From: an uncultured candidate division Zixibacteria bacterium
GTDB lineage: Bacteria; Zixibacteria; MSB-5A5; GN15; FEB-12
NCBI GenBank assembly: GCA_963806185.1
Contig: CAWDXE010000007.1
Span: 128,001 to 192,000 of the forward strand
Length of the DNA: 64,000 nucleotides
Direction of reading: 5' to 3'
Shown: positions 4,472-33,903 of the stretch, in pieces
Position numbering within the stretch: the stretch's first letter is position 1
Layout of the letters: each line of letters begins with the position of its first letter
The notes under the pieces: model-generated
What the model saw: only the letters and a program-made list of their open reading frames with translations
What the model was told of the DNA's origin: nothing
The model's database searches: none
Position numbers and translations under genes: made by a program

Positions 4472-4534
4472 GTATGTTTGGTTTTTGGTCTGCGTCAATG
4501 TGCGGGTATAACCGGGAAGCTGAGACTCGACAAG

Positions 4535-8360: not shown

Positions 8361-8368
8361 AGTCCGCT

Positions 8369-10132: not shown

Positions 10133-10202
10133 CGACGTACCTCCATACTGAAGCGTGAGCTTGTTTGCCGTTTTCTGGGCGGTCTTTCCAAGGGTCTCCC
10201 GG

Positions 10203-13510: not shown

Positions 13511-13624
13511 TGTTGCATCAACCTGACCGGCAATGTCGGCCGCGACGCAGCTGACGGCGTCGATGTCGGCGAGATCACGTGTTTGATCGACGACCCTTTA
13601 ATCCGCATCGCTGGATTGCCACCA
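13511..13624 (+). pseudogene. Degenerate remnant of the Cys-bracketed dockerin-like C-terminal module
   Basis: Translates CCINLTGNVGRDAADGVDVGEITCLIDDPLI, versus CCVAATGNVDCDAADGVDIGDLTALIDNLFI at the end of the 20175 gene; second repeat missing and no credible upstream gene. Confidence 0.65.
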
Positions 13625-13700
13625 AGCGAACAGTATCGTGATCCAACCTGGGAGAGACGAGGGCCGATCTCAGCGAGGTGCGTGACCCCTGTCATTTGTA

Positions 13701-13860
13701 CCCAATTTGGGTCCAATTCGCTCCGGTGTAGACAAGTCTACAAGCATCTAGACAAAACCATATGGAATTGCTAATTCGTTGGCGCTATTGGCACTATGGC
13801 GTAATCGATTGTATCGCAATTGGATGACGAATAAGGCTCGGGCGAATCCTACCTCCTCCG
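13701..13860 (+). repeat. ~160-bp non-coding direct repeat, copy 1 (att-site-like, ends in a tRNA-3'-like core)
   Basis: Aligns to 32147-32304 (3 mismatches in the first 84 nt) and partly to 22401-22483; contains GTAGAC-AA-GTCTAC palindrome and ends CGAATCCTACCTCCTCCG. Confidence 0.88.
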
Positions 13861-14231
13861 GTTGTAAGTCATTGTGGGACAATCGTGTATGCCGCCCGTC
13901 AATCGGGTTCGCCGCATGACTCCTCCACCACCGGGATTGGGATTGTGAGACTTCTCTGCGGCGGGTTATGCGTGTGGTGGTCGCGCCTGCACCTGTTCCT
14001 ACGCTCACCATCGATATCTCATTCAGGCGTAAAGCCCGAGTAGTAGCCTTCTTGCGTGTACAGCCAGATCAGGCTGCCGACCCATATGGCCTGATAATGA
14101 ATACGTACTCCCGCAGCTGAGTTCCGCCTCACCCCGACAACCATTGACAAGCGGAGCCATTTATCCATATCTTTTGACAAGCACACGACAAGGTAATCAT
14201 ACGGTCCAAACCGATTGCAGTCGAGGACGAT

Positions 14232-17200
14232 ATGGTGCACTCCACGGTTCGGTGGCAGGGAGTACTCACATTAGCGCTTCTCACAAATCTAATAGTATCG
14301 GGATCCGGACTGACTGCGAATGTGGTTCGGGTCGACCATCGTATTTCTGCAATTCGATGGTACAGCTTTGGCGTTGCCCGGCAGAACTCATCCGCTGTCT
14401 CCGAAAGAGACAGCTTGGTGTCTTCTACGACCACGATGTCCGGCAGTCAGAAGTTGTCGGTCGGTCAAGCGGCGACCGCGTCGCGGCGCCTGGGCCCGGG
14501 CTTCGTCGTCGATAATACTTATGACGATTGGCAGCACGGTTCCCGCGGGCGTAAAGTGGATTTCTGGTCCACCCCCGACGTGCATTTTGCCTACTCCGAT
14601 CTGCCGCAAGCCAGCCTGGATTTCTCTCGCCTTGGTTACAATGTCTATGATCCTGTAGGCGGGACATGGCCGCATCTTGCCGGCCAGGGCTGCGAAATTC
14701 AAACAACCGGCGAATATGGCAGCATGGTCTCGTCGTCGATCACACCGTTGGGCCGCGCCGTTCTCGCCGGTCATGAACCCCGCTTGCAGGCGGATCATCA
14801 CCTTTATTACCAGTCCGCTGGCACCGCGTATAGCTGTCTATGGGGGATGGGCACAGCCATCCCGAAATCGAACTATAGCCAGTGGCGTGGCAATCCAGCC
14901 GATACCGCACCGGAACTGAATTTCCCCATCATCGAGATGCAACTGATCGGCGCCGATACGGTGCTTCACCTGGCTGCGCGCTGGAATGGTACCGTCGCTC
15001 CCGGCGGCCCAAACGCACTCGGGTCGGTCGAATACCCAATCCTGTACTATCGCAAGCTCGGGCAGACTGCATCGGGAACATGGACCGGCCCAACGGTTAT
15101 CGATACATCCTACTACTATCTGCACCTTGCAGCGTCACGCGTAAATCAAAACGTGGCCGTCTCCTACATCAAGATCACGGACGCCGGGTATGCCCAGGGT
15201 GAATCGTCAGACGAGATGGCGTGTTATCGTGAGTCGAATGACGGCGGTCTGACCTGGGGACCGCGCACCGTGATCCACTCGATAGATCGATCCGTGCAAA
15301 CCATAGCGCCGTGGGTGGAGGCACAGTGCTTGTACGACAGCAACGGCGATTTGCATATCGTTTTCAATGCGCGGCTGGTCGCTGCTAACCCATACCTTAC
15401 CGGCTATGAGTGGAATTCGCTCCTTAGTGGCTCGAACGTTTATCATTGGTACAAGCCCACCAACGCTGTCAGCTTGGTTTATGATGCGACGTGGCCTGCG
15501 GATCAGATCTACGGCAGAGTCTGTGGCTGGATCGGTTACAACGCCCTCACGACAGCCTACGTGACCATGTCTGAGTGCGGAGGCCACATATACGTCTTTT
15601 GGTCCATGGCCAACGACATGAATACCCCTGGAGCGCCGACCGATGATTGCGCCTCCAGTGTCGGTGCGAGTGACTGGCGTTTTCAAGGAAACGCCGATAT
15701 CTTTATGTCTGTCTCCAATGACCTCTACGGAAGCCTCTGGGACACACCGCGAAACGTTACGGCTACCTATACGCCGAACTGCGATTCAGCCGCTGGTAAT
15801 GGAATCTGCATGAGTGAGGTCAAAGCGGCAACGTCCCGTTACGGACTTGACTCTTCCTCTTACGGCGCGGCCCTTACCTGGCCGGACACATCCTTGACTC
15901 TCGGGGGCGAGCGAAATAATGACTCGTCGATTCAGCTGTTCTACGTGGAAGATCATTATCCTGGTCAATGGACACTGTCGGGCCAATTCACTTTCGTGCC
16001 GACACTCAATCCGCTGAAGTGGGCCCGGATTTCCTGCGTGGCTCCCGTTCCCGAAGCGAAGCTTGTCGCGAATCCAAAGAGCGTGGGATATCCGTACAAT
16101 GTGCTAAACCATTCAATTCACGACACCACCATCGAGCTCCGAAATACGGGAAACATCGAACTCGGATACACTGTCGCGGCTCAGCAGAACAACGGGCCGA
16201 CCGGCTGGCTTTCGGTTTCTCCTGGGAACGGAACGGTTCCGCCAGGGGGGGCTACCCAGCCGCTGAACGTACGGATCGATGCCAGTTCGGTTGAGGCGGG
16301 AGATTCCGTCGTGTACCTGCAGGGGCGATTAGTGTTCACCTCCAATGCATTGACCAGCCCCGACACGGTTCCGATTATAGTAGCGGTTGTTGACACCATC
16401 GGTAACCTCGTCTGGGACACGATCAGCACAACTTGTCTGTCGTTAACCGTCGCTAACAATGGGACGGCCGGACACCAGGGGCTCGGAAAAGTCAATTTGG
16501 ATTACTTCAATCATGGCGACTGCGATACGTTGTCCACCGACCACACAGTGTCCGAACTTTACCTCTTTGATGCGTCGCCGGTGGTTGGCTGGGTGAAAAA
16601 CGGTGATACTGTACTGTATGATGGGCTGTATACCGGCTCGATCCGTACGCAGAGTAGCCTCCTGCCTACGGAAGCACCGACCGGGCCGGTGCAAATGCCC
16701 GGCTACACCGCCTATCAAACCGGTACCTTTGTGACCTATGACTCCACCATTGGCGTGCGTCGCACATGGATGGCGCCGACCGGGGCCAGTTCCTGCAACT
16801 ATTTGATTCAGGAACAAAAAGTATTTGTTCGCGACGGTCAGGTGCACAGCGGGCTCATGATCGGCGATCTCGTGGACTGGGACATTCCTTCCAGCACCGA
16901 TCGAATGAACGTCGGTGGAGTGGATCCGTCTCGAAACCTGCTCTATCAATCCGGGATTGGTAGCGACTGTCAGTCGAATGCTGATAGGTTCGGCGGCTTG
17001 GCGCTCATCGGCTGGCAGAAAAACTCACAGACGACCGGCCACACCTGCAGTGGTGGTTACGTCATGCGCACCGACTCCATGCTGCTCCGGCCCTTCGTCG
17101 GTTTTGACCCGCGACAGCTGTATCGTCGTATGTCCCTGGTGACGTCGCTGACGGCCAACCCGGCTGACACGGCCGATCAATATATGGCCATTGCGTACGT

Positions 17201-20024
17201 GTCCGGCCTCTCTCTGGGGCCTGGAGATACACTGACGATCTACAGCGCCTACGCGACGGTCAGAAATGGTACGCTCAGCACTCTGCAGAGAGCGATCGAT
17301 AGCGCCAAAACATGGCTATGCAACTCAGGCCGTCATCCTTTCCTCCCGACGCCGGACATCTGTGATTTCTGCGGGGATGTGAATTCGGACGGCGTTATCG
17401 AAATCAGTGATATCACTGAACTAACATCCTATCTCTACCACTCTGGTGCGGCTCCACAGCCGCTGAATGTGGCGGACATGGACGGATTCAGCGGGGTAAC
17501 GAACAATGACCTGATGCGCCTATATGACTACCTGTTCGAGAGCTTCCTCCCTCCAAGCTGCGAGACTGCGCCAATACCCTTCCCGGCGATCAGCGACACG
17601 ATTCTTATCACGGGGAGCTACGTTGTTCCCGGCGTCAGCAAGCCGGTCGTGAATCTGTGGATGCGCACGCAGACGCTCTGGCAGGGGCTGTCATTTCCGT
17701 TCTCGGCGCATTGTCTTACATCAGATCTTTACATCGATTCGCTGGTGATCAACCCGGCGATGAAATTTGAGGAGCAGTCCTTTGCCCTTGTTGATTCAAT
17801 TCACAACCCTTCTGACGCGAGAGGGTTGATCGGTTTCGCCAGCCCAGCGCACGAGTACAGCGGTGATGTCCTGCTCGCATCAGTATACTTTACCGTAACA
17901 CCAAGCGACCGAATACAACGAATTTCGTTCGATACTTCATCCTTTTTGCCTGGCCATACGACGGTTCTCTCCCGTTGGTCGGGAACCGGTGAAACGGGGG
18001 TACCGACCCTGAAAGACGAATTCGACATCGACCACGATAATGTACCTGACACGGTGGATAACTGCATGCTGATTGCGAATCCATCCCAGAGTGATATCGA
18101 TTCGGATTCGCTCGGCGATCCGTGCGACAATTGTCCGTCGGTTGCCAACGGCGATCAGATTGATTCGGACGGTGATGGAAAGGGTGACGCCTGCGATCCT
18201 GGCGTTGGCGACTTTTCCGCTACGCCTCGATGTGGCGGCGCACCTCTGACCGTCTCGTTCGTTGATGCCACCGTTCCGCTACGGCCCGCCGTGAGCTGGC
18301 ATTGGGATTTCGGGGACAACGCCACGTCAACCCAAAGCAATCCGACACACGAGTATTCTGATGTCGGCGTGTTCGACGTGACAATGATAGTGTCCGACGG
18401 TTTTGGGGCAGACACCATCACGAAGGAGTCGTATGTCACAACGCAGGAGGGTCTCACTGTTGAGTTCTCGGCCATACCTACGGCCGGTCAATCGCCGCTG
18501 ACGGTGGCCTTCGCCGCCAATATCACTGGGTTGGTCACTGACTATCTCTGGGAATTCGGTGATGGTGATACCGGCAACATCGCGAACCCGATACATACGT
18601 ACGCCGTTCAGGGCATCTACTCTGTGATGCTGAAGGCTCGGTTTGTCCAGGACGGCTGCAATCAAGCCGACTCCCTCATCAAACAGCAGTTCATAACGGT
18701 ACGTGATCTGGTGGCTCGGTTCACAGCCGACAAACAGGTCGGCAGCTTCCCGCTAACGGTACAGTTTATTGATCAGAGTTCCGGCGAGCCGACATCTTGG
18801 TACTGGGATTTCGGCGACAATGCGACATCGTCGTTACAGCATCCGATCCACGTGTATTCCACAGCGGGCCGATACGACGTGAAACTGAAAGTAGCGAACA
18901 GTCTCTTCGAGGACAGTACCGCCGTCCTTGGTTTTGTTCAGGTCGATACCCCGTATGTCGATCTGGAGACAGATGTCTGGACCAATGGAGCCAAACCCGG
19001 TTTTGACTTCTGGTTCCGGGTCCCCTGGAGTAACCTCGGTACCAGCGATGCCGCCGAATGCACGCTCAAGGTTCTGCCGCCGGCGTTGATGCAGCTCCAG
19101 TGGGTCGATGCCGATTTTGATCCTCAGGGTGCCTATCAGGGATTCACTTTATCCGGTGACACAGTGGTGGTGTCGCTTGGCGCGGTTCCACCCAACGGTC
19201 GTTACGGCGGCTATCTGAAATGCTACGGCACCCTGCCGGGCTGGCCGGATGTCGAAGTCGGGGATACCCTGGTCGGCGAGGCCTGGCTGACGACTGCATC
19301 GATAGACGCCGACACGGGTAACAACAGCGTGATCCATGCCTTCGAGGTGACTGGCTCAATCGACCCGAACAACAAGACCGCCTATCCGGAGGGCATCGGC
19401 ACGTTGCAGGCGATCAAGCCGACCCAGCGACTGGATTACCTCGTGCAATTCGAAAACACGAAAGAGGCCAGCGAAGCGGCCACGTACGTGCTGGTGGTCG
19501 ACACTCTTGATCCCAATCTGGACTGGCGCACGCTCGCAATTGGCGCCGAAAGTCACCCGAGCAAGTGTGTGCACAGCTTTGACCCCTTTACCGGCGTCAT
19601 TACCTGGTTCTGCGACAGTATCATGCTTCCGCCCAACGTTGTTGCCCCAGAGGGCGAGGGGTACTTCACCTATTCTATATCGCCGAAGACAGGCCTGCCG
19701 GAAGGAACCGAGATCAGCAACCGCGCTTGGATTCGCTTCGACTTCAACAAGTGGCTGGAGGCACCCAAGGCGGGTCCGCTGATACGGCATATCTTTGCTG
19801 GATGCTGCGTGGCACAAACCGGCAACATCGACTGCGACCCAACGAATGGTGTGGATATTGGCGATCTGACCACACTCATCGACAACCTCTTCATCAGCTT
19901 CACACCACTATGCTGCGATGCTGAGGCCAACTGCGATGGACTTGGCGGGATCGACATCGGTGACCTTACGGCCCTTATCGACAACTTGTTCATCACCTTC
20001 ACGCCGCTGGCGGGGTGTCAGTAG
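14232..20024 (+). CDS. 1930-aa secreted multidomain protein: BNR/Asp-box N-domain, Ig-like, internal dockerin, cohesin-like domain, TSP3 repeats, 3x PKD, DUF11/DUF7619-like, C-terminal dockerin
   Basis: N-terminal hydrophobic stretch; SNDGGLTW Asp-box; CGDVNSDGVIEISDI...ADMDGFSGVTNND dockerin; DNC/DxDxD TSP3 repeats; WDFGD/WEFGD PKD motifs; GSIDPNNK; duplicated DIGDLTxLIDNLFIxFTPL tail. Confidence 0.85.
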   Translation: MVHSTVRWQGVLTLALLTNLIVSGSGLTANVVRVDHRISAIRWYSFGVARQNSSAVSERDSLVSSTTTMSGSQKLSVGQAATASRRLGPGFVVDNTYDDWQHGSRGRKVDFWSTPDVHFAYSDLPQASLDFSRLGYNVYDPVGGTWPHLAGQGCEIQTTGEYGSMVSSSITPLGRAVLAGHEPRLQADHHLYYQSAGTAYSCLWGMGTAIPKSNYSQWRGNPADTAPELNFPIIEMQLIGADTVLHLAARWNGTVAPGGPNALGSVEYPILYYRKLGQTASGTWTGPTVIDTSYYYLHLAASRVNQNVAVSYIKITDAGYAQGESSDEMACYRESNDGGLTWGPRTVIHSIDRSVQTIAPWVEAQCLYDSNGDLHIVFNARLVAANPYLTGYEWNSLLSGSNVYHWYKPTNAVSLVYDATWPADQIYGRVCGWIGYNALTTAYVTMSECGGHIYVFWSMANDMNTPGAPTDDCASSVGASDWRFQGNADIFMSVSNDLYGSLWDTPRNVTATYTPNCDSAAGNGICMSEVKAATSRYGLDSSSYGAALTWPDTSLTLGGERNNDSSIQLFYVEDHYPGQWTLSGQFTFVPTLNPLKWARISCVAPVPEAKLVANPKSVGYPYNVLNHSIHDTTIELRNTGNIELGYTVAAQQNNGPTGWLSVSPGNGTVPPGGATQPLNVRIDASSVEAGDSVVYLQGRLVFTSNALTSPDTVPIIVAVVDTIGNLVWDTISTTCLSLTVANNGTAGHQGLGKVNLDYFNHGDCDTLSTDHTVSELYLFDASPVVGWVKNGDTVLYDGLYTGSIRTQSSLLPTEAPTGPVQMPGYTAYQTGTFVTYDSTIGVRRTWMAPTGASSCNYLIQEQKVFVRDGQVHSGLMIGDLVDWDIPSSTDRMNVGGVDPSRNLLYQSGIGSDCQSNADRFGGLALIGWQKNSQTTGHTCSGGYVMRTDSMLLRPFVGFDPRQLYRRMSLVTSLTANPADTADQYMAIAYVSGLSLGPGDTLTIYSAYATVRNGTLSTLQRAIDSAKTWLCNSGRHPFLPTPDICDFCGDVNSDGVIEISDITELTSYLYHSGAAPQPLNVADMDGFSGVTNNDLMRLYDYLFESFLPPSCETAPIPFPAISDTILITGSYVVPGVSKPVVNLWMRTQTLWQGLSFPFSAHCLTSDLYIDSLVINPAMKFEEQSFALVDSIHNPSDARGLIGFASPAHEYSGDVLLASVYFTVTPSDRIQRISFDTSSFLPGHTTVLSRWSGTGETGVPTLKDEFDIDHDNVPDTVDNCMLIANPSQSDIDSDSLGDPCDNCPSVANGDQIDSDGDGKGDACDPGVGDFSATPRCGGAPLTVSFVDATVPLRPAVSWHWDFGDNATSTQSNPTHEYSDVGVFDVTMIVSDGFGADTITKESYVTTQEGLTVEFSAIPTAGQSPLTVAFAANITGLVTDYLWEFGDGDTGNIANPIHTYAVQGIYSVMLKARFVQDGCNQADSLIKQQFITVRDLVARFTADKQVGSFPLTVQFIDQSSGEPTSWYWDFGDNATSSLQHPIHVYSTAGRYDVKLKVANSLFEDSTAVLGFVQVDTPYVDLETDVWTNGAKPGFDFWFRVPWSNLGTSDAAECTLKVLPPALMQLQWVDADFDPQGAYQGFTLSGDTVVVSLGAVPPNGRYGGYLKCYGTLPGWPDVEVGDTLVGEAWLTTASIDADTGNNSVIHAFEVTGSIDPNNKTAYPEGIGTLQAIKPTQRLDYLVQFENTKEASEAATYVLVVDTLDPNLDWRTLAIGAESHPSKCVHSFDPFTGVITWFCDSIMLPPNVVAPEGEGYFTYSISPKTGLPEGTEISNRAWIRFDFNKWLEAPKAGPLIRHIFAGCCVAQTGNIDCDPTNGVDIGDLTTLIDNLFISFTPLCCDAEANCDGLGGIDIGDLTALIDNLFITFTPLAGCQ

Positions 20025-20174
20025 GCTATGACAAAAAGACACGAGATTTCTGTGCGAACGTTCGTAGTGGGTGGCTCTTGGGAGTCAGTATTTTGTTCTC
20101 GGTATTTGAGATGTTCGATACTTGATCCTAATGATTAGGGCATCTGTGCACGCCATGGGAAAGGAAAATCAGTC

Positions 20175-22340
20175 ATGATCGCACCTGCAACCCTGATGCT
20201 CCGATTGGGTGCTCTGCTCACTGTCGTCGCGTTGCTCTTCGCGTCTGCTTTGACGGCCGAGCCAATACAGCACGAATTGAACGCGCCCGACTACCGCCTG
20301 TCGCCCCCGCGACCTCCGGATTGGGTGATGCCGAAGATGCCGCTACAGCCGCAACGATCGGCTGCAGCGTCAATGACCCACGATCAGTACCTGTCGATCG
20401 ATGTGTTGGTCGTGGTGTACACAAACTACGTATTTGACAATGTCACTACGTCCGAGATCCAGGCGTTGCAGGCCGAGGTGGCGCAGGCCCGCGAGTTCGA
20501 CTTTAGAAACTCCCAGTGCCGCCTTGACTTGAATATCTCGTACGAGGTCATCAATCGTAACCTGACGCTCAATCAATTCTGGAAAGTTGCCCCGCCGTAC
20601 GGATACTGGTATCCATTTTGGGAGGTCGATGGGATTCACTCGGTACGGAACGACCTCTACGCGCTTGGATATTCCGACAACCAGTTTGCGGCCGTCTTTG
20701 TGTACTATGCGTGGCAGAATGTAGACACTGCTGCCGCCGCATACGGCGGCGGCGCATACGGTCCGGACGTCGGGTTCATGGGCAATACCGCGTACGCATC
20801 GGTGCCACTTTGTTGGGACCCGGCCACCAACGACTGGTACTTCATACACGAATTTCATCACCAGCTCGACGGTATGTTCAATTACTCGGGGCATCCGGAG
20901 TATCCGCATGCCGATCAGCCGGGGGATTATAATGGAGGATATGACGACGGATATTCATTCAATGCCTGGATTATGCGAAGCTGGCCCTTTAATGACTGGG
21001 GCGGAATGTCCACAAGCTGGGGCAGTGTGTCAACCTTTGACGATCCCGACACAGACTCGCTGCCCAATAGCGGGACGTTCCCGATCACGGAGACCACATT
21101 TGGAAGTGACCCGACATCCATTGATGGCGACTACGATGGCTTGTCAGATATGGGTGAGGCGACGGCCGATTATTTTAAGGGATCCGATCCGATGGAACAG
21201 GATACGGATGGTGACGGGCTACCAGACGGACTCGATCGCTACGCGCTAGACTCGGTGAAGACGCGTGTGCCGTACGCGAATCCGATTATCGACGGCGTCA
21301 TTAATTGTCCCAACTGCAGTATTGCTCATATTGTGGGAGAAAGCAGCGCCGACTTGAACGCCACTCTGTATGCCGGTCACAATGACTCTGGTCTGTATAT
21401 CGCCTTGCAAGCAAACGATGATATCGTACAGACACCGTGGGGAGACCCGTGGTGGGACGACGGCTTCGAGATAAAGCTGGACGCCACTGATGATGGCTAT
21501 CTCAACCGCGGAGACAATGACTATACGATTTCCGTGGCTCCCACAGGTGGTACAACCACACCGCTCGTCAATTGGGCTATCCTGCGGTCCAATGGAACCC
21601 GCGACCAGACGTATATCCCTCAAACCGACGTTCGAGCGGCGTACACTAGGGGATCAAACAGCTATTCAATCGAAGTCTTCATCAAGACTAATACCCTGAC
21701 CGGCCTGGGAGTGTCATCTCTGGACACCATCGGTCTGCAGGTTGATGTAATCGACTATGACACCTATCCGGGATGGCCCCACTATGTATATTTCACCAAG
21801 TTCCTAAGTCTTGATTTTATCGCCAAAGACGAGGCGCCGCCCGCGCCGCCCCAGAATTTAACTGCCAACGCGAGTACCGATAGCGTCGTATTGGCGTGGA
21901 ACAAGAACCTTGAACTTGATATCTCTCGGTACCGGATCTTTGGTGGCGTCAGTCCCCATCCGACAAGTAAAGTCGACTCCACGACTGGAGGAATAAGTGA
22001 CACAACCAAAGTCGTACACGGGCTGGTTGCGGGGACAGCTTTTTACTTCAGAATAGCCGCCGTGGATACGGCTGGAAACGTAAGTTCCTACTCGAATGAA
22101 GTAGCAGTGTTGATGACGTGTTGTGTCGCCGCCACCGGTAATGTCGACTGCGACGCAGCTGACGGTGTCGATATCGGAGACCTGACAGCCCTGATCGACA
22201 ACCTGTTCATCTCGTTCACACCACTCTGTTGTGAAGCCGAAGCGAACTGCGACGGTTCGGGCGGAATAGACATCGGAGACCTGACGGCCCTGATCGACAA
22301 CCTGTTCATCACCTTCACGCCGCTGGCGGCGTGTCAGTGA
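20175..22340 (+). CDS. Secreted zincin-like metallopeptidase with Ca-binding repeats, CBM9-like domain, FN3 and C-terminal dockerin
   Basis: Signal peptide; YFIHEFHHQLDG (HExxH); DTDGDGLPDG repeats; GLYIALQANDD...DGFEIKLD CBM9-like; PAPPQNLTA...YFRIAAVDTAGNVS FN3; dockerin tail. Confidence 0.8.
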   Translation: MIAPATLMLRLGALLTVVALLFASALTAEPIQHELNAPDYRLSPPRPPDWVMPKMPLQPQRSAAASMTHDQYLSIDVLVVVYTNYVFDNVTTSEIQALQAEVAQAREFDFRNSQCRLDLNISYEVINRNLTLNQFWKVAPPYGYWYPFWEVDGIHSVRNDLYALGYSDNQFAAVFVYYAWQNVDTAAAAYGGGAYGPDVGFMGNTAYASVPLCWDPATNDWYFIHEFHHQLDGMFNYSGHPEYPHADQPGDYNGGYDDGYSFNAWIMRSWPFNDWGGMSTSWGSVSTFDDPDTDSLPNSGTFPITETTFGSDPTSIDGDYDGLSDMGEATADYFKGSDPMEQDTDGDGLPDGLDRYALDSVKTRVPYANPIIDGVINCPNCSIAHIVGESSADLNATLYAGHNDSGLYIALQANDDIVQTPWGDPWWDDGFEIKLDATDDGYLNRGDNDYTISVAPTGGTTTPLVNWAILRSNGTRDQTYIPQTDVRAAYTRGSNSYSIEVFIKTNTLTGLGVSSLDTIGLQVDVIDYDTYPGWPHYVYFTKFLSLDFIAKDEAPPAPPQNLTANASTDSVVLAWNKNLELDISRYRIFGGVSPHPTSKVDSTTGGISDTTKVVHGLVAGTAFYFRIAAVDTAGNVSSYSNEVAVLMTCCVAATGNVDCDAADGVDIGDLTALIDNLFISFTPLCCEAEANCDGSGGIDIGDLTALIDNLFITFTPLAACQ

Positions 22341-22400
22341 GGTAGCCGTAAGTGTGATAGTTCCGAGGCCATTCATCAACGGGTGAGTGGTCTCTTTCAT

Positions 22401-22483
22401 TTGTGCCCGATTTTGATCCAATCAACTCCGGTATAGACAAGTCTGCAGCGATCTAAACAAGACCATATGGAAATGCGAACTGG
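22401..22483 (+). repeat. Diverged, truncated copy 2 of the non-coding repeat
   Basis: ttgtgcccgattttgatccaatcaactccggtatagacaagtctgcagcgatctaaacaagaccatatggaaatgc aligns without gaps to the 5' half of copies 1 and 3. Confidence 0.75.
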
Positions 22484-22549
22484 TATTCGTCTGATGACCG
22501 GCGGATAGCCAAACGACACCTATATTGGGAAGAGTACTCCTGTCCTGAT

Positions 22550-22887
22550 GCCTTGATCGCCGGAATTGTTTTCGATTTTGACCTCCTGTTCTTTGCCGTA
22601 TTATATCCTGTAGAGAACGCATGTTTGGTTACTCTTGTCTGTCCGGGGCGCCGAGTAGCTCCGATCAGGCAAGGTAAATGGTTCTTTCCGTCTGTTACAC
22701 GAGCCCTGAAAGCGAAAGGGAAGAACACGAACCCTCGCCGACCGAAGATTTGTTACGTCTGTCCGATACTGAGGATCAGCGGGGCCAAATATTTGCTGAT
22801 CTACGTGAAAGATTCTCGCGAATTGCCAAAAGACGAATTGGGGTGCAGGATGCAGAGGACGTTGCCAACGAGGCGAGTCTAACGGTT
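22550..22887 (+). repeat. Diverged duplicate of the ECF sigma promoter, leader and 5' coding region (32472-32815)
   Basis: Colinear similarity over ~340 bp, e.g. gccaaaagacgaattggggtgcaggatgcaga is identical in both copies. Confidence 0.88.
22717..22887 (+). pseudogene. Truncated ECF sigma factor pseudogene
   Basis: HEPSPTEDLLR...IFADLRERFSRIAKRRIGVQDAEDVANEASLTV matches the N-terminus of 32640-33185; start ATG replaced by AGG; homology ends within region 2. Confidence 0.8.
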
Positions 22888-23133
22888 GTGAATCTGTGCG
22901 GATATGACGCCCCCGCGATCTACTGCGCGCGTATCGGTCATGCGTGACCAGTCGCCGGATTAGACGGATTTAGCGTGAGCTGCAAACGCCCAAATTGTCT
23001 GCACCTCCTAATCGCATGCCCCGGTAATCGGGAGTCGCAGTGTCGCCACATGGGTACACACTCTGGATGGACAAGTGAAATGTAGACATCAATTATAATA
23101 CTTCAATCGGCTGAATATTGCCAGGAGAAAGGT

Positions 23134-26100
23134 ATGTTCACGAAAACTGCGTGTTCAACATTCGCGCTGATCGTACTGCTGCCGATTCTTGCATGGGCTG
23201 AGCGCATCTCAGTTGCGTCGCAAGAAAGCTCGGACGTAGTCGTGACGGTGCTCGAATCAAGCGATACTCGCACCGTCGTCCGCTTCGACATTAATGCCTT
23301 CAATCAGGACACTGTCGATGTCGAGGGAAAACCATACTTCAGGCTCAGACTGTCGGGGGAATCCTTTGCCCATCAACTCGGTGCACCCGAGTTGCCGGTG
23401 ATTTACCGGAGTCTCGGTCTGCCTGACAATGTTGATGCGAGCCTGCGGATCGTGTCGTCGGAGTTTGTCGACATATCAAACACCCCGGTAGTTCCGTCCG
23501 ATGGCGGGATCGTACCCGAGGCGGGGGAGCGCAAGTGGACATTCGGATCGGCCTATTATGCGTCAACCTGGGTGCCTTCAGCGATAGCAGAGCTGGCGGA
23601 CCCGTTCATAATGAGAGGCATTCGAGGGGTCACTGCCAATATCAACGCGTTTCAGTATCAGCCGACAACGCACACTCTCCGCGTGTTTCGCTCGATAACA
23701 GTCGAGATTTCCGCTGATCATGCGGCGGTGACCAATGTGAGACGAGCTGATGCCTCACGCCCCGCGATAACTGGGGACTTCCAGCGGATTTATCAGGGTT
23801 TGTTTCTCAATTACGGCGCCGTAGAGAAGAGATTGGTTGCGGATCGATCGATCGCTCCATCGTCGACATCGGGAACGGGCATGCAGGCCTGGCCGGATCC
23901 GGAGATGCCGGACGAGCTGGGAGAGATGCTGATCGTCGTTTACGACGACTTCCATGATGCCATGCTGCCGTTTGTGGAGTGGAAGCAGCAGAAGGGGATG
24001 AAGACCACGATGGTACGGGTGTCGGAAACGGCGAACTATCCGTTCACGCCAGTCAGTTATCCGTATGAGTTCTGTCCTCTCACTGCGGTTTGTAATAGCG
24101 TGAAGTCATACATTCAGAATTATTACAATGAGCACCCTACGTTGTCCTATGTGCTCCTGGTTGGAGACGGTAACGAGATTCCGGCCATCGAGTGTCGATC
24201 GTTTGAGAGCGAAGTCACTGAATCTGATTTCTCATACAGCCTTATCGACGGTGTTGACGCCTATCCGGATGTCATTGTCGGTCGATTCTCAGCCTCCACG
24301 GTCGCACATGTTCAAACGCAGGTGAGCCGGAGTATCGACTATGAGAAGGCGAATATCGCCCCGGGCTGGCTGGAAAAGGCGGTCAACATCTCAGATCTCA
24401 GTTTCGCCGGCGGCGAAATGGATCAGATACGCGATCTGTTGGTTGCCGATGGATATCAAGTGGACAACTGGTATTGTCAGGACGCCATGAACTGCCCGGA
24501 GGGTACAACGATCGAGTCGAACCTGATTGCTGCCTTGAACGGCCCGGGACGAAGCGTAGTGAACTACTATTGGCACGGGAATGAGAATAGCTGGGCGTTC
24601 AGCCCTTTCACTGTCGATGATGTACGCGGTTTGCATAACACAGGAAAGCTGCCTATTCTCTTCAGCATCGCCTGTCGACCGGGACACTTCGTTGCCACGC
24701 CGTGTTTTGCTGAAGCGATGCTGCAGTCTCGCGAGAACTATGTCGGTGACCCGATCGGTGCGGTCGGTGCGTATATGTCATCAGAGATCATTACCGGGCC
24801 GGAATTGTGGAACGGCATCATGAGCGCTATCGGCGATCTCACCGCCGAAAACGGTAACAGCACTTACGGCGGCATGTGCTTTCATGCAGCACACACGATG
24901 GTACAGCGGGGCTCTGAGGCCTGGGCCGGCGTAATGATCGTTTTCGGAGATCCTTCGCTGCAAGTGCGCAAGCAGGCACCCGGTACACTGGCGATTGCGC
25001 CCTTAACGAGTATCGACTACAACGCAGCCAGTGTGACCTTATCTGGCGCAACGCTCAACGGCGCGGCCGCGCCGAACATCCGGTGCGGGTTATATGGCGA
25101 TAGCACGATGTGGGGTTCGAGTCTCACGGACGTCGCTGGCCAAGTGTCGGTACCGTTGAGTTCTCCCATCTTTGCCTCTGGTCCGCTACTGCTGACTGTT
25201 ACGGCGCGCGACGCGGACGTAATCCAGATGCCGGTGGCGTTGACGGGATTGACCATTCAGGCTGCGCAGTTGCCGAATACCATTGAGATCCTGGAGCCGT
25301 ATACCGTAACCTGCAAGGTGTTCCACGACAATTACTCGTATTCGACTCCGGCGCTCGAATATCGGGTGAATAGTGATCCCACATGGCAGTCCATTACCAT
25401 GACGTCCGGGACAAATCCTGACGAGTATAGCGGGCAAATCCCCGCTCAGGCACCGGGCAGCACCGTCTACTATCGCGTCTCGGCTTCGAACGAGAACTCC
25501 TATTCGTACGTTACGCCGGAGTACAGCTTCTGGGTCGTCGACTATGCTTTCACCCTCGATGTGCCTGAAGTGACGATCGACACGGAACTGTATAACCATC
25601 CCGTGTATTTCGACATGGGCATAACAAACGAAGGCGCGGTGACGGACTATTACACTCTCAGTGTCGCCGAGGGACTACCGTGGACCGCGACGTTCGTGAA
25701 TATGGCTGATCAACCCATCACTCAGACTTCGACGATGCACAGCGGACTCGGGTATGCATTTCGACTCAAGGTAATAGTCGGTTCCGCAACTCCAGATGCG
25801 GCGATTGATATCCCGATAACAGTTGCGTCGGGACAACGTCCGGAGCTTACCCGGTCCGAGACTTTCACGGTGGTGTCTGAGGGTGCTGCGTTGACGCCGC
25901 CGTTCGCGGACGATTTTGCCGGTTCGACGCTCGATTTGGACAAGTGGCGCGACTGTCTGCAGGCAATCAACAAGTTGCTGATTTCAAGCAGCGCCTATTA
26001 CGATGCGGGTGGCGCACGACCGCAGCCATACTCTGCCTGCCTGTATACGTCGATGGAACTGGGGCTGGCAGCCTCAGCTGCTCTTGTGATGTGCTCCGGG

Positions 26101-27975
26101 TTGACGAGCAAGATGATCGACCTGTCATCGTTTGCCAATGCAAAACTGTCGTTTTGGGGAGAGCGCGGCGGAATGCTAAACCTGCCGGAAGGCGATGACG
26201 AATTGGTTGTTGAGTACATGGATGGTCAGAAGGTGTGGCAGGAGTTGGCTCGATACGGGTCTACATATTTCACTAATGCTGCGTTCACGGAGGTGCGTCA
26301 GGCGCTGCCGTTGGCTGCACTTCACTCTCGGACTCAGATTCGTTTTTATTCAATCTCAACCGTCGATCTCAAAGACCCGATACAGGGCGATCGGGACCAT
26401 TGGTTCATCGATGACGCTTCTATTTACGTCGTGCCCAGTGCTCCGGTGTTATCAACGCCCATTTCGGGGACTCATTCGACGAACCAAACGCCGACGCTGA
26501 CCTGGCAGCCGTCGCAGCCATCCGGGCAAGTGAGCTCATATCATGTGGAGATCAGTCTGGATCCGACATTTGCACAGATCCACCGTTCAGCCTCCGTAAC
26601 CGGTACCACCTGGACAGTCACGCCCGCCCTCGGAACGGGTGCCGCATCCTACTACTGGCGAGTGAATGCTCAGATGCAGCTGGCGAGTACACAGCTGACA
26701 GATTCAAGTGCCTGGTCGACGACTTATACCTACGTCACAACGACGGGGGGGGGCGGTGGTGGGGGCTCCTCATGTCCCGTCTTGTTTGCATATAATGGGG
26801 CAGCTTATCAGGAAGAGAATCCGCTGCTCACGCGTTGCGAAGAGAGCGGTTATAAGGACGCAGTGACGGACTACTATCTTGTTCAAACGCGAGTTGATGC
26901 GAAAACCGGGTTGCTCAGATTCGAACTTCGCGAACAGGAAGATGAGATAACTTATCTGGACAGTGTCTCCTTGCTGCAAGTTGATCATAGCAGCGGCACC
27001 AAGGTAGGATGTTCGGTCGATGGGTTCCCGTTCCTCTACAACGATATCATCTCGCCGATTGCGGCGATCGACCAGGATGGAAACGACTGGCTGGAGGCAG
27101 TCAGTGACAAAGATAACGTCTTGTTTACCGCCATTGGGCCGGGGGAGCTGACGGTTACGTTTGAGGTACCGGCTGGGCGGACAGGTCTCAGAATAGCTGC
27201 CGGTCTCAAGCCGCCTTACTGTATAGCGCGGAAACCCGGATCAGGTACCCCCGTCGCCGGAATGAGGGGGGTGAATGTCTCAGGTCGATCAGCGGAAGTC
27301 GGCTGGAACGACCTCGCAACCTTGCCGTTGCGAGAGCGGCCGACGGACGAATATGTGCTTCTTAACGCGGGTACAGATGGAAATCAGAGGACGATCGAGT
27401 TACGAATTACCTGGCCAGATGCCTATGTCGCCGATGTAATCAGTTTGGTCGTGATTGCCGACGAGCAGCCGGTGGTCTCTCCGCTATTGGCAGATTGCGG
27501 CAAGTTGACGCACAAAGACGGGACAGGTATCGACGTAATTCGGCCGAGTGAGGACCGAGTGACGCTCATAAAGGGCGACGTGCTCGCACTTGATTTCAAG
27601 GCGGAAGAGACGTCAAGCCCGTGGACGACGCGCGACTACGTCGTAAAGGCATCGGGTCGGTATGTGCCTGTCGTTGTCGCGTCAACGGATCTACCCGTGA
27701 AATTTGAGCTGTACTTCAATTACCCGAACCCGTTCAATCCGACCACCACTGTCGAATACGACTTACCCGTCTCGTGTCAGGTGAATCTCAAGGTGTACAA
27801 CGTGCTGGGTCAGGAGGTCATAACCTTGGTGAACGCCATGGAACAAGCAGGACATAAGTCTGTTGTCTGGAACGGTCGCAACAATGCGGGGGAAGCAGTG
27901 GCGAGTGGTGTGTATATGTATAGGCTGGCCGCCGGCAACTTTGTGCAAGTGAAGAAGATGCAGTTGATCAAATAG
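23134..27975 (+). CDS. C25 (gingipain-like) cysteine peptidase with propeptide, FN3-like domains and C-terminal FlgD-Ig/T9SS-type sorting domain
   Basis: Signal peptide; GAPELP propeptide; FVEWKQQKG, YVLLVGD, VIVGRFSA, catalytic YYWHG and SIAC, FGDPSL; tail NYPNPFNPTT...VYNVLGQEV...WNGRN...VASGVYMYRL...KKMQLIK; RBS AGGAGAAAGG. Confidence 0.9.
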   Translation: MFTKTACSTFALIVLLPILAWAERISVASQESSDVVVTVLESSDTRTVVRFDINAFNQDTVDVEGKPYFRLRLSGESFAHQLGAPELPVIYRSLGLPDNVDASLRIVSSEFVDISNTPVVPSDGGIVPEAGERKWTFGSAYYASTWVPSAIAELADPFIMRGIRGVTANINAFQYQPTTHTLRVFRSITVEISADHAAVTNVRRADASRPAITGDFQRIYQGLFLNYGAVEKRLVADRSIAPSSTSGTGMQAWPDPEMPDELGEMLIVVYDDFHDAMLPFVEWKQQKGMKTTMVRVSETANYPFTPVSYPYEFCPLTAVCNSVKSYIQNYYNEHPTLSYVLLVGDGNEIPAIECRSFESEVTESDFSYSLIDGVDAYPDVIVGRFSASTVAHVQTQVSRSIDYEKANIAPGWLEKAVNISDLSFAGGEMDQIRDLLVADGYQVDNWYCQDAMNCPEGTTIESNLIAALNGPGRSVVNYYWHGNENSWAFSPFTVDDVRGLHNTGKLPILFSIACRPGHFVATPCFAEAMLQSRENYVGDPIGAVGAYMSSEIITGPELWNGIMSAIGDLTAENGNSTYGGMCFHAAHTMVQRGSEAWAGVMIVFGDPSLQVRKQAPGTLAIAPLTSIDYNAASVTLSGATLNGAAAPNIRCGLYGDSTMWGSSLTDVAGQVSVPLSSPIFASGPLLLTVTARDADVIQMPVALTGLTIQAAQLPNTIEILEPYTVTCKVFHDNYSYSTPALEYRVNSDPTWQSITMTSGTNPDEYSGQIPAQAPGSTVYYRVSASNENSYSYVTPEYSFWVVDYAFTLDVPEVTIDTELYNHPVYFDMGITNEGAVTDYYTLSVAEGLPWTATFVNMADQPITQTSTMHSGLGYAFRLKVIVGSATPDAAIDIPITVASGQRPELTRSETFTVVSEGAALTPPFADDFAGSTLDLDKWRDCLQAINKLLISSSAYYDAGGARPQPYSACLYTSMELGLAASAALVMCSGLTSKMIDLSSFANAKLSFWGERGGMLNLPEGDDELVVEYMDGQKVWQELARYGSTYFTNAAFTEVRQALPLAALHSRTQIRFYSISTVDLKDPIQGDRDHWFIDDASIYVVPSAPVLSTPISGTHSTNQTPTLTWQPSQPSGQVSSYHVEISLDPTFAQIHRSASVTGTTWTVTPALGTGAASYYWRVNAQMQLASTQLTDSSAWSTTYTYVTTTGGGGGGGSSCPVLFAYNGAAYQEENPLLTRCEESGYKDAVTDYYLVQTRVDAKTGLLRFELREQEDEITYLDSVSLLQVDHSSGTKVGCSVDGFPFLYNDIISPIAAIDQDGNDWLEAVSDKDNVLFTAIGPGELTVTFEVPAGRTGLRIAAGLKPPYCIARKPGSGTPVAGMRGVNVSGRSAEVGWNDLATLPLRERPTDEYVLLNAGTDGNQRTIELRITWPDAYVADVISLVVIADEQPVVSPLLADCGKLTHKDGTGIDVIRPSEDRVTLIKGDVLALDFKAEETSSPWTTRDYVVKASGRYVPVVVASTDLPVKFELYFNYPNPFNPTTTVEYDLPVSCQVNLKVYNVLGQEVITLVNAMEQAGHKSVVWNGRNNAGEAVASGVYMYRLAAGNFVQVKKMQLIK

Positions 27976-28020
27976 CTGCGTTGATTTGCGGCGACAGTGC
28001 CGTTAGAGCGCGTTATTCAG

Positions 28021-28057
28021 AGTGCCATGTCGCTCACGATCGGGTGTGCATGGCACT
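28021..28057. other. Stem-loop downstream of the C25 gene
   Basis: AGTGCCATG...CATGGCACT 9-bp inverted repeat; no U-tract. Confidence 0.35.
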
Positions 28058-28424
28058 CGCGATATCGACATTTGGCAAGGTCAGTCGTCCTGCGCACGAT
28101 CGATCCGGATGGTTTTGGTGGTATTTCGGATTACCTTTCGGCTTGGCAGCGAGCTCGGTCGCTGGAAGAGTGAAGAATCACTTGCATCCACTCAATCGTA
28201 CTGTAGATTGTGGTTGCCATTGTCGGTGATGCCTGGATAGAGCACCGACAACAGGCTATGGTTACAATCATCGATCTTGAGTGCCCGGTGGTGAGTGAGC
28301 GTATGACGTTCTACGAACACACCATCAGGGATTCACATACGTAAATCATCTGAGCTAAACTCTGTGGGCAGTGCTGCCCAACTGCGCAGTTGGGCTGTCT
28401 GCCGAGAAGGGAGAGGAGTAAACC

Positions 28425-31400
28425 ATGGAACCGGGTAACTTCATCAAGGTTTCCAGCTTACTGTTGGCAGTGTTGACGACGGCGTATCCGTCTGCAGGCG
28501 GGGCTACAGAGAAACCCGACGGGGGAATCGACAATCGCCGTCAAACAATCAAAACCTACGATCTGGCGGCGGATCGACCACGCGAGCGGATATCTACGAG
28601 ACTTTCGGGGATTGTTGGTCCCCAATTAGCCGCACCCGTCCGACGAATCTCCGTCGGCGCCTCCGGCGATAACGCGGCTACCGCGGGCCCGGGTATCGAA
28701 GTTGAAGCTTCTTACGACGACTGGCAGGGCTCGTCTCGCGGCCGTCGCGTGGATTTCTGGGGCACCCCGGATATGCACTTCGTTTATCAGGATCAGCCCG
28801 CACCGATTACGACTGAAGAGCGTGCCGGCTATAACGTGTATAGCCCCACGCTCAATAACTGGCCGAAAGGCTTGGGCATTGGTTGCGAAGTTCAGGCCGC
28901 CGGCGACTACGGTATCATCACCTCGATGGCTGTGACCCCCAAGGGCCGCGTCATCCTGGCTGGTGCAGAGCCGCTGTCTCAGATGGACAACCACTTCTAT
29001 TATCAGCCCTCTGCCACAGCTTACTCTTGCACCTGGGGCACCGGCACCAAGATTCCGAAACTCGGCACCAACGGCTACAGCACCTGGCGTGGCCTTGCTT
29101 CCGATACCGCTCCGGAAATGGTTCTCCCGATTGTGGAAACACAAATCATCGGTTCTGATACCATTACCCACGTTGCGGCTCGTTGGCAGGGCACGGTTAA
29201 TCGCCCGCGCGACCGGCAATCGGCCACCGCCGGTTTCCCGATGCTGTACTACCGCAAGCTTGGCCAGACGGCCTGCCGGTACCTGGACCGGTCCGGTACT
29301 TCTGGATACCGTCTTCTCGCAGTGCAACCTGGCTGCTTCCCGCGTGAATAGCAATATCGCCGTTGTCTACACCCGTAACGACCGATCAGGGTTACATTCA
29401 GGGGAAGGCAACGACGAATGCGTGGCTTATCGGGAATCCACCGACGGTGGATTGACCTGGGGCCCGCGTACGGCGATTACCACGCAAGACCGGGCGTCGC
29501 GTCAATCTCTCCGTGGATCGAATGCTCAGGCGCTCTACGACCAGCAACGGCGATCTCCACGCGGTTTTCAACGCGGTCAACGTTGTTGCCGATCCATACG
29601 CGAGCAGGATATGAATGGAATTCGCTATTCAATGGGTCGAATGTCTATCACTGGACGAAATCCATCAATCAGATCAGCCTGATTTACGATGCCACCTGGC
29701 CCGATCCGGCTTGGGTATGTGGGTGGATGGGATTCGACGCCCTGACTACGGCACAACTGAGCATTTCCGAGTGCGCTGGCCGTCTCTATGTGTTCTGGTC
29801 GATGGCCAACGATCTCAATACCCCCGGTGCTCCGACCGACGATTGTACTTCCGGCGGTGCGCCGTATGACTGGCGTTTTTATGCCAACGCCGACGTCTTC
29901 ATGTCGGTGTCCAACGATCTCGCCGGCGCCCTGTGGGATGCCCCGCGTAACATCACCAATACCTATACCCCGAACTGTGACTCTGCCACCGGCAACGGCG
30001 TTTGTATGAACGACGTCAAGATGGCGGTGTCGCGTTATGGTATGGACTCCTCGCAGTACGGCGTGGCCATGACCTGGCAAGAGCCGCCGCTCACCATGGG
30101 TGGTACCATTACCAACGACTCGACTCTCCACCTGTTCTATGTGGAAGATCACTATCCGGGCCAGTACAATTTACAGGACGCCTCGTTGACGTTCGTTCCG
30201 ACGCTGAACCCGCTGCGCTATGCTCGCTTGGCGTGTGTTGCGCCGAACACCGCTCCGACAATTCACTTGGAACCTCTTGTCGCCTCGGCCTCAATCCGAC
30301 ATGGCATGAGCGCCGCGGTAACCGTGACCGTTCGCAATAGCGGCAATACCACACTTACGATAGGCTCCATCGACATACATAAGGACAACTACGCCCCTGA
30401 GAACTGGCTCGGAGTGTCTGCCACTTCACAGTCCGTTCCACCCGCAAGTACGGGAACTTTCAATGTCAGCTTCACCGCCACACCTTTTTTCACGGCGGGT
30501 ACAATTTGGACTGCCGGCGGGAGTGTGACTCTGCATTCAAACGTGCATACGGCTGACTCGGTGCTGGTCATTCCTGTAGGTTTGGCGGTAAAAGATGACA
30601 CGACAGAATCCGTGAAGATATATGAGCTTGATTATCGAACCGCGGGACCCGAAAAGCCCCAAACGGTGTGGGCTTGGGCGCGAATAGCATTTCAGCCGGG
30701 TCCAGGAATCAAGTACTTCAACCTGGCCGTAAATGATGCTTGGCGGGTGAAGAATGTGCCGGTTTACGCGGTTGAGGGTGGTTTCCCTATCCAATCTCTT
30801 GACATCCTATTTCCTCTGTTGGAGAGCACACCCAGTGTTCGCTATGGCTTTACAATTACGCCTGGAATCGGGACACAACCAGAATGCAGACTTGTGGACG
30901 ATCCGACCAGGATGTTAGTTTATTGGCCGAGCGGCCTTGCCGAACAAGAGGTCGTGGACACGGGACTCGCCTATGTCGCACCGACCGCTATTACCGGGGG
31001 CTTGGTCGCAGATGGCACGGCACACAGACATCTCGATTTCCCAAGCCAACAAGCGTGTGTGATGTGTTGTACTCCGACGTCCGTTTCGAACTCACTGAAA
31101 TTTCTAAATACAAGGCACAACCTGCATATCCCGGAGGCGGAATTGTCGCCTGAGGCGATGAAGGCAGCGACCCATTGGACTGCCAAGGACGGTTGCTGGG
31201 GGACCATTGACCCGGAAAGAGGACCCAGCAACTGGAATACATGGTATGCATATAAGAAACAGTACTTGCTTAACAATGGAATTCCCATTTGGACTGAGCG
31301 GCGTTCGCCTTATCGTGTTAACGAAATGGCGGCAGAAATAGATAAGAACAACGTCGTTGAAATGAGCTTCTGGGGACGGCGCTACGATCCTTCCGAAAAC

Positions 31401-31856
31401 GAGTTTATAGAATGGGGACATACAGCTTCGTTGATCGGCATCACTGACGTAGGCGGCGGCCGCTATTCTATGGTGTTTGCCGACGATTTACAACAGGGGA
31501 ATGATTCCGTACCAACCTGGCCGCCGTATATCATGGTCTGGGACGCCAATACACAGATGTTCCAATCTCATGTATATCGTACGATCCGGAATCTCGTCAT
31601 TGAGACTCCAGTCGATTCCGTCTCCGGTTGCTGTATTGCCACGACCGGCAACGTCGACGGCGATGCCCTTGACGGCGTAGACGTCGGTGATCTGACCAAG
31701 CTGATCAATAACCTGTTTATCACCTTTGAAGCCATTGACTGCCCGGCGGAAGCCAACTGTGATGGCGACGGTGCGAACAGTGTCGACGTAGGTGACTTGA
31801 CGGCGTTGATTAACAACCTGTTCATAACCTTTGCGCCGCTTCCTGCCTGTCAGTAG
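28425..31856 (+). CDS. Secreted paralogue of the 14232 protein (shared N-domain) with a papain-like/C39-like peptidase region and C-terminal dockerin; several indels at ~29270-29610
   Basis: ORF pieces 28425-29351, 28963-29682 and 29418-31856 each align in turn to the N-terminal ~600 aa of the 14232 gene (YDDWQxxSRGRxVDFW, FWSMANDxNTPGAPTDDC, FYVEDHYPGQ). C-part has QQACVMCCTPTSVSNSL, EWGHTASLIG, VFADD. RBS AGGAG. Confidence 0.78.
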
Positions 31857-31873
31857 GCAAAGTCGAATCTTCG

Positions 31874-31910
31874 GAGCGAGGCCACAATCATTGAGATTGT
31901 GGCCTCGCTC
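31874..31910 (+). terminator. Strong hairpin after the 28425 gene
   Basis: Perfect 16-bp stem GAGCGAGGCCACAATC-attga-GATTGTGGCCTCGCTC, 17 nt after the stop; weak U-tract. Confidence 0.6.
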
Positions 31911-32146
31911 TGACTACGCAGCTCACCGATCCATGCTGCACCTCGTCCAACTTGATACTGCTTCTGCGAACTCAGCTGTCACAGTAACCGGAGGATGTGA
32001 GTAGTCGGCAACCTCGCTGAGAGCTTCCGACAATTGCCCAAACCGAATCCCGGTCTCTCCACATTCGTGTGTCGTGCGAGAAATCCAGAGCTGCAGCCTA
32101 GTGAAGGCAATTTTGGTGACCGAGTGAGCGGTGTAGTTTTTGTGTG

Positions 32147-32304
32147 CCCAATTTGGGTCCAATCCGCTCCGGTGTAGACAAGTCTAGAGGCATCTAGACA
32201 AAACCATATGGAATTGCTAATTCGTTGGCGCAATTGATCTATGGCGTAATCGGTTGTATCGCAATTGAATGCGAAAACAGCCTCGCCGAATCCTACCTCC
32301 TCCG
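32147..32304 (+). repeat. ~160-bp non-coding direct repeat, copy 3
   Basis: Near-identical to 13701-13860; ends CGAATCCTACCTCCTCCG(C). Confidence 0.88.
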
Positions 32305-32639
32305 CTTTTATATTCAACGCGAAATATCCATTGTCAATGAGCGGCGAAGAGCGGGTGTTGAGGCAAGGGGCTGTGCGTCCGTGGAAGCACGGATGCAGTC
32401 GCACGGAGAAGATCAAATAGAGAAAAACTTGCCTGATAGGTGGGATACCCGTAGGGGACCAGGGGACCGACGCCTTGACCGCCGAAATTGTTTTCGATTT
32501 GGACATGACGCTTTTCGCCGTATTATGACCTGTTGAGAATGCGTGTTTGGTTACTCCTGTCTGTCCGGGGCGCGGACGAGTTCCGATCAGGCAAGGTGTA
32601 CGATACTTCACGATTTGTCTCACGAGCCCTGGAAGCGAA

Positions 32640-33849: not shown

Positions 33850-33903
33850 TTGAATCGGTGTGGCAACGAGAGGTGGCCGCGATCTGATTGGGCTTCGGTT
33901 CTG

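Follow-up and report, generated by a model that had tools for sequence, protein, structure and literature searches.

The stretch of DNA analysed here (the window: 64,000 nt, C7:128001-192000 of G000, a 3.65-Mb genome assembly of an uncultured Zixibacteria bacterium) carries two long direct repeats, which we call A and B, and a decayed third copy, C, among genes for predicted secreted proteins. The question that this locus raises is what these repeats are and how they came to lie where they do. A preliminary description had seen in them scars of attachment (att) sites, left by serially integrated cassettes that lack an integrase and are mobilised in trans, and had offered a shared regulatory element or non-coding RNA as the alternative. 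Our analysis indicates that the repeats are almost certainly att sites and that A and B are probably attR sites, left by a tyrosine integrase that inserted circular elements at a tRNA-Ser(UGA) gene at least twice, the resulting blocks of genes now being probably immobile.

The repeats and their tRNA-Ser(UGA) core

The repeats are found where the preliminary description had placed them, and its account of their likeness is accurate: A and B share 89.5% identity over 171 nt (E 2e-56), have exactly three mismatches in their first 84 nt and end in the same 18-mer, while C is 81-82% identical to both over its first ~80 nt. No further arm copies were found in the 3.65-Mb assembly beyond A, B and C. 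The 18-mer has three exact matches in G000, all on one strand, namely A, B and the 3' end of a tRNA-Ser(UGA) gene that is called by both ARAGORN and Rfam and sits 6 kb left of the window, so that the serine tRNA with a matching 3' end that had been proposed does exist. Allowing up to two mismatches reveals no other copy of the 18-mer in G000, and allowing up to four reveals no additional core within 138 kb downstream of the tRNA, nor is there an extra arm copy near the array.

The polarity of the copies shows how the array is laid out. A conserved stretch of ~145 nt precedes the core in both A and B, which gives both of them the polarity of a right end (attR type) and makes A an internal junction, the order being tRNA - 19,865 bp - A - 18,444 bp - B (core-to-core distances). 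It follows that the two repeats do not bracket an island as its left and right ends, which is how they had been read, since both are arm-then-core; on its left side the system begins at the tRNA, which lies 6 kb beyond the window. Two hallmarks by which Islander-type islands are recognised are thus present, that is, an intact tRNA with a displaced 3' fragment downstream on one strand, and an attP-derived arm joined to that fragment. The gene order before the tRNA is common to G000 and its relatives, and the region after it is not colinear in all relatives: the genes of the second block have no full-length match in the 20-kb tRNA loci of seven genomes with a single core. An OPT gene was considered as a marker for where the backbone resumes and was rejected, being present in only 14 of 108 genomes and inverted in G121. 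The features are as follows.

1..13860, no strand: segment 1, the part within the window (19,865 bp core to core from the tRNA); no recombinase
13697..13860, + strand: copy A, an attR-type right arm with the tRNA-Ser(UGA) 3' core, which closes segment 1 and forms the attI-like junction to segment 2
13695..13716, + strand: tandem 11-bp pair of A, putative arm-type integrase-binding sites (profile from integrase-adjacent pairs; same motif before the attR cores of relatives)
13727..13756, + strand: three repeats with a 10-bp period (starting at 13727, 13737 and 13747), predicted excisionase or recombination directionality factor (RDF) sites (from sequence and the phased repeats in the arms of relatives)
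13843..13860, + strand: 18-nt core of A, an exact copy of the tRNA-Ser(UGA) 3' end (C7:121911-121996)
13861..32304, + strand: segment 2 (core-to-core length 18,444 bp), with genes for predicted secreted proteins; no recombinase
13865..13889, + strand: degenerate core-proximal left-arm motif TAA-N4-TTG-N5-CAA-N4-TTA that opens segment 2, with no distal arm pair after it
22382..22483, + strand: copy C, a decayed right arm in which the distal half and the core are gone (homology spans 22382-22479; arm-profile score 6.5)
22547..22886, + strand: remnant of an extracytoplasmic function (ECF) sigma gene, comprising its upstream region and its 5' end, with 80% identity to 32469-32815
32143..32304, + strand: copy B, right arm and core, beyond which the array has no detectable att site (arm pair at 32141-32162, phased repeats at 32173-32202, core at 32287-32304)
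32547..37089, no strand: module right of B with ECF sigma, zinc-finger anti-sigma and CHAT-TPR genes, patchy in relatives

The arms of A and B can be compared with sites that adjoin integrase genes elsewhere. From 85 tyrosine-integrase loci of other genomes, 55 were kept after dropping duplicates, truncated starts and short flanks, and directly upstream of the integrase 52 of the 55 have an arm pair, 51 a tRNA or transfer-messenger RNA (tmRNA) tail and 51 both. A weight matrix built from these 52 arm pairs, with no input from G000, was run over both strands of G000, where it ranked B second (score 21.2) and A eighth (16.5); the other six top matches comprise four at other tRNA/tmRNA-associated regions and two that look like chance. 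A hidden Markov model of the whole arm, made from relatives only, finds B (E 0.005) and, weakly, C. The arm motif occurs in 87 of 160 genomes of the order, with ~190 matches as against 7 for a reversed control. Taken together, the tRNA match, the integrase-adjacent arm profile and the distribution of the arm motif make it very likely that these are att sites. A Xer/dif origin does not fit a core that is the tail of a tRNA gene and arms that match the sites next to integrases, and it was rejected.

The finer anatomy is read with phage lambda as the guide, its Xis model being the basis for assigning an excisionase/RDF role to the phased repeats, and the putative roles of arm, Xis and IHF-like sites all following that model. 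In B, the 10-bp-period repeats start at 32173, 32183 and 32193. The palindrome GTAGAC-AA-GTCTAC that had been described for the repeats is perfect in A and confined to it; B makes plain that the unit consists of three direct repeats with a 10-bp period and that the palindrome of A is a by-product of these.

Each copy comes after a dockerin-like gene end or remnant (~95 nt upstream of A, 62 nt of C and 287 nt of B). This position, pointed out in the preliminary description, is correct, whereas the dockerin part of that statement is a resemblance, since the Pfam dockerin match lies solely within gene 14232-20024 and the C-terminal tails have none. The same position, together with the ability of single copies to fold into local hairpins, is what speaks for the repeat being a shared regulatory element, or a non-coding RNA, located behind genes of the dockerin type. 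We consider this alternative highly improbable because (i) a search of 11000-35000 against Rfam gave no credible match (one chance match, E 0.15, outside the repeats), (ii) eight aligned arms have no consensus base pair, (iii) folding z-scores are just -1.27 and -1.72, (iv) dockerin-like motif matches number 44 across the genome and the repeat occurs at this locus only and (v) the copies in relatives follow unrelated genes.

Integrase, left arms and the fate of the units

The G000 assembly has no integrase that would fit A and B. Its two PF00589 genes are read, from sequence and neighbours, as XerD (whose neighbour is a ComF-like gene) and XerC (with an hslV-like neighbour); there is no match to PF00239 or PF07508 in G000, no IntI integrase in the assembly and no recombinase in segments 1 and 2, and tblastn for the cognate integrase or its remnant returns just the XerC/XerD-like pair. 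Neither segment has integration or transfer genes by Pfam on the longer open reading frames and genome-wide recombinase searches, which did not include a separate search for relaxase families. The locus is therefore as integrase-less as had been supposed. The cognate integrase family (PF00589 plus PF13102; 370-390 aa) is found in 62 of 160 genomes of the order, G000 not among them, and of the records that carry a related integrase many are labelled Zixiibacteriota or Zixibacteria and others Ignavibacteriales. A scan of phage contigs with an integrase alignment gave 19 distant matches (at most 36% identity) and identified no helper.

The relatives show what a complete unit looks like. The core is present in 117 of 250 other genomes of the phylum and in at least two copies in 18, all of which were examined at their core loci. 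In 12 of these 18, the extra cores have a tandem arm pair ~140-150 nt upstream, followed by phased short repeats, the arms being of the A/B-like TGTGCC type in five genomes and of the TTTCTAAC type in seven; the remaining genomes have 400-480-bp GIY-YIG elements (four) or split or partial tRNA copies (two). In four of the five TGTGCC-type genomes the integrase lies directly behind the tRNA, after a second arm pair. The integrase gene is intact in G162 and G244, carries a frameshift in G107 and is truncated at a contig end in G152; next to it are HTH_17 genes (G244 and G107) and a primase gene (G107). A DNA search with the whole repeat in 60 relatives matched solely the tRNA core, in 4 of them, as arms diverge too fast for BLAST. 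A metagenome pattern scan produced one chance match, in an unrelated eukaryote-like gene without BLAST similarity to G000, and was discarded.

Other features of these relatives deserve mention in their own right. The autonomous elements at tRNA-Ser(UGA) (L013, L029 and L035) carry defence-like cargo, that is, a SMODS nucleotidyltransferase, ThiF with JAB and a restriction-type helicase. The second arm type consists of a TTTCTAAC pair and about six repeats with a 10-bp period, shares the tRNA-Ser core and, in the seven genomes that have it, never adjoins an integrase (L019-L023, L030-L032, L039 and L042). G180, a single contig, has three TTTCTAAC-type sites, none of them near a matching tRNA; two of these sites are in inverted orientation to each other, separated by 29.5 kb.

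Autonomous elements in relatives have their left arm pair immediately ahead of the integrase start codon, so that deletion of the integrase would tend to remove the arm pair too, and the joint loss of both would leave the pattern seen here, with cores and right arms only. Within 200 nt after the tRNA, A or B there is indeed no arm pair (best scores -11, -1 and -13). The motif after A matches at 11 of 12 positions, the motif having been set by eye on a set that includes A, and on an independent profile it scores 4.8, a value reached by ~1% of background windows. By the yardstick of cis-mobilizable elements (CIMEs), attR is retained in both A and B, and of attL there is a core and, after A, a weak proximal motif, with no arm pair. 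With no integrase in the assembly and the left arm pair missing, the units are probably frozen.

The array could have been built as follows. A circular element with an attP composed of right arm, tRNA tail, left arm and integrase would recombine with the 3' end of the tRNA, restoring the gene and leaving arm and tail at the far end of the insert. Each insertion would thus push the 18-nt tail and the right arm of the element to that far end, and repeated insertion would stack units into tRNA - 19.9 kb - A - 18.4 kb - B, with C and the sigma remnant as the putative deleted trace of a third, older junction. Serial integration, as first proposed, fits this layout well.

The nearest competitor to frozen units accepts the same att sites and regards the units as working non-autonomous cassettes, for which a passing element would supply integrase and Xis in trans, acting on an intact right arm and a minimal left flank. 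Much in the relatives speaks for cassettes of this kind. G142 has, on one contig, a 5.4-kb integrase-free cassette at tRNA-Ser(UGA) and, on another, the exact empty site with a 100% flank match, and the cassette recurs, with 81% nt identity, in G058, a member of a different family. Other closed units without an integrase are those of G191 (2.4 and 10.0 kb), G044 (2.2 kb) and G168 (3.8 kb), and 19 of 20 regions chosen for at least two arms within 20 kb, a choice that favours small units, have no integrase, although in G022 and G023 one lies 19-25 kb off on the same contig. Several of these 20 regions are runs of 1.5-11-kb units behind tmRNA or tRNA-Leu; such runs behind tmRNA or tRNA-Leu(UAA), with one to few genes per unit, are seen in L084 (G014), L089 (G041), L083 (G029) and L100-L102. 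In G000 itself, A keeps a core-proximal left motif. However, the cassette of G142 and G058 has the other arm type, a filled/empty pair is a precise indel that does not imply that integrase was absent when the cassette moved, and in G000 the helper is absent from the assembly. Mobilisation in trans, part of the preliminary description, is not shown for segment 1 or for segment 2, which have no arm pair after the tRNA, A or B as against 52 of the 55 integrase-bearing left ends. It is better supported for the small integrase-free cassettes of relatives than for the segments here, for which we regard it as unlikely.

A broader version of the same idea would have one tyrosine-integrase family serve a lineage-wide, integron-like gene capture in Zixibacteria, with a common TGTG(A/C)CCA arm pair at several tRNA-Ser, tRNA-Leu and tmRNA ends, small helper elements in less than half of the genomes, and integrase-free cassettes, including those for secreted dockerin-tail proteins, shuffled in trans, the A-B segment being a live cassette. 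This is a tentative proposal, which we would expect to fail rather than hold.

A further explanation concerns C and the number of insertions. Behind C, beyond a deletion, lies a copy (80% identical) of the region after B. C hence marks an older junction, which entered via duplication or within a composite unit; judged from sequence similarity, C together with the sigma remnant, a truncated reading frame with 71% aa identity over 70 residues, is an older, deleted copy of the B junction. There might thus have been a single true integration, the extra arms having arisen by tandem duplication or homologous replacement of a block made up of secreted-protein gene, attR and ECF sigma start, followed by deletion and divergence. 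In agreement with this, 13860-22886 and 28425-32815 are paralogous in order (66% nt identity for gene 1 and the split gene, 78% for C and B, 80% for the remnant and sigma), and duplication probably explains C and the sigma remnant. As an account of the whole array it is improbable, because the sequence after A is a left-arm-like motif, unlike the sequence after B, because segments 1 and 2 are unrelated in content, and because G191 has the same two-attR tandem with unrelated cargo.

Insertion at least twice by a tyrosine integrase, with units now frozen, remains our preferred reading, and several observations weigh against it. The left-arm motif is at background level after the tRNA (score -4.5) and after B; the arm model made from relatives did not list A; and, the assembly being 82% complete, the integrase could be unassembled. 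The first cargo gene (14232) is one of a native multi-copy family that has 6 matches in G000 and occurs in 100 of 160 genomes. Parts of segment 1 are likewise found behind a tRNA-Ser att site in G057 and G162 and could therefore be long-standing residents. The point at which the variable region ends on the right was sought without success, and a GC signal of an island was sought and dropped, the segments (0.52-0.60) showing no anomaly with respect to the genome (0.56). Finally, the relatives compared include no genome of the same genus, so that no empty site was seen for either segment, the precise empty site at the same core (G142) being that of another cassette.

Cargo, flanks and other islands

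Within the window, segment 1 encodes glutamate dehydrogenases, a metallophosphoesterase, PPDK_N proteins, a response regulator, a methyl-accepting chemotaxis protein, a porin and a PAS-LuxR protein, and includes a dockerin-like remnant at 13511-13603. The module at 252-7558 (also L001:12754-18259) comprises two glutamate dehydrogenases, three PPDK_N-domain proteins, a response regulator and a metallophosphoesterase, and part of it follows the tRNA-Ser att site in G057. Segment 2 carries genes 14232-20024 (PKD/dockerin), 20175-22340 (CBM9/fn3) and 23134-27975 (peptidase C25), as well as 28425-31856, a split paralogue of gene 14232-20024. Decay is visible in C, in the sigma remnant and in the dockerin remnant. 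To the right of B, the module at 32547-37089 is possibly older cargo; its CHAT-TPR homologues are uninformative, since they are 28-37% identical and patchy (33 of 160 genomes).

A leader before gene 14232 (14142-14232) is repeated at C7:39949 (91%) and C4:31412 (80%), where it precedes other dockerin-tail genes just beyond tRNA hot spots. Genes 28425-31856 and 40411-42226 (an OPT transporter) are split by frame changes that could be long-read errors, in which case they would not be pseudogenes. GC skew switches sign several times within single large contigs of G000, once near the array, which suggests rearrangement or scaffolding.

G000 has at least three more integrase-free regions bounded by att sites. 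One, at tRNA-Leu(CAG), is an island of ~33 kb (C7:4568-37433; L059 covers its right end) that lacks an integrase and has a related arm pair preceding the duplicated tail; it contains two copies of the tmRNA 3' end (4896 and 33152) and arm pairs at 23968 and 33118, the tmRNA gene itself being on contig C1. Another, at tRNA-Ser(CGA), is an island of 16.3 kb (C7:79329-95716) without an integrase, in which the right arm is related and the left proximal motif strong; its cargo looks by eye like arsenic-resistance and permease genes. Of another sort are the 300-480-bp elements that duplicate a tRNA 3' end and have a single GIY-YIG open reading frame (C5:189656-190045, L016, L017, L018 and L037; confirmed by Pfam in L016 and L018). 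They sit at tRNA-Met in G000 and at tRNA-Ser(UGA) in relatives, have no integrase arms and seem to be a mini mobile element of a distinct kind.

Comparison with known systems

The finding is that of an ordinary decayed tandem island at a tRNA, a known route by which bacteria accumulate accessory genes, and its value lies in a worked map of att anatomy, together with the cognate integrase, for an uncultured phylum; no papers on such att sites in Zixibacteria were found in literature searched at the level of titles and abstract openings. Island finders that require an integrase skip units of this type, and the share of accessory genes that arrive by this route is consequently underestimated. The arm, core and integrase sequences would let an assay in E. 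coli decide between live cargo and dead scars.

Integron cassette arrays are serial, recombinase-free blocks of genes separated by repeats, which is also a fair description of this locus. The sites here are nevertheless different, being tRNA-tail cores with direct-repeat arms and no conserved stem-loop like attC, with no IntI involved and units of 18-20 kb.

In the tycheposons of Prochlorococcus, successive integrations at one tRNA push older elements inward and leave partial tRNAs (bioRxiv 10.1101/2020.12.28.424599); the autonomous element of G107, with integrase, HTH_17 and primase, is similar in the kinds of gene it carries, whereas the units here lack an integration or replication module. 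The tRNA/tmRNA islands of Islander are defined by an intact tDNA and a displaced 3' fragment on one strand, an attP of ~250 bp and a tyrosine integrase, and integrase-free candidates are rejected (PMC4383910). Our locus has the intact tDNA and the displaced fragment, and relatives have the tyrosine integrase, but there is no integrase gene within the island and the units here would therefore be filtered out. The ssrA islands of Dehalococcoides are in tandem, with ~20-bp copies of the target 3' end, and 15 of them are without an integration module (PMC3146451). Like the array described here, they stock a lineage-typical multigene family, but they depend on serine recombinases (DsiA/B) at tmRNA, whereas here a tyrosine integrase of 370-390 aa (PF00589 plus PF13102) with arm-type sites would act at tRNA-Ser(UGA).

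The closest match is with CIMEs, which have lost the genes for integration and transfer, keep att sequences (by definition both attL and attR) and accrete in tandem at one target gene (PMC5704250). The units here likewise have no integration or transfer genes, retain att sequences and lie in tandem at one target gene; they differ in that, although cores and right arms persist, no left arm pair can be detected, and the assembly has no integrative and conjugative or integrative and mobilizable element in tandem with them. An intact attL is not evident, and we describe the locus as CIME-like; in the way it works it resembles a tandem tRNA island array, which is a known kind.

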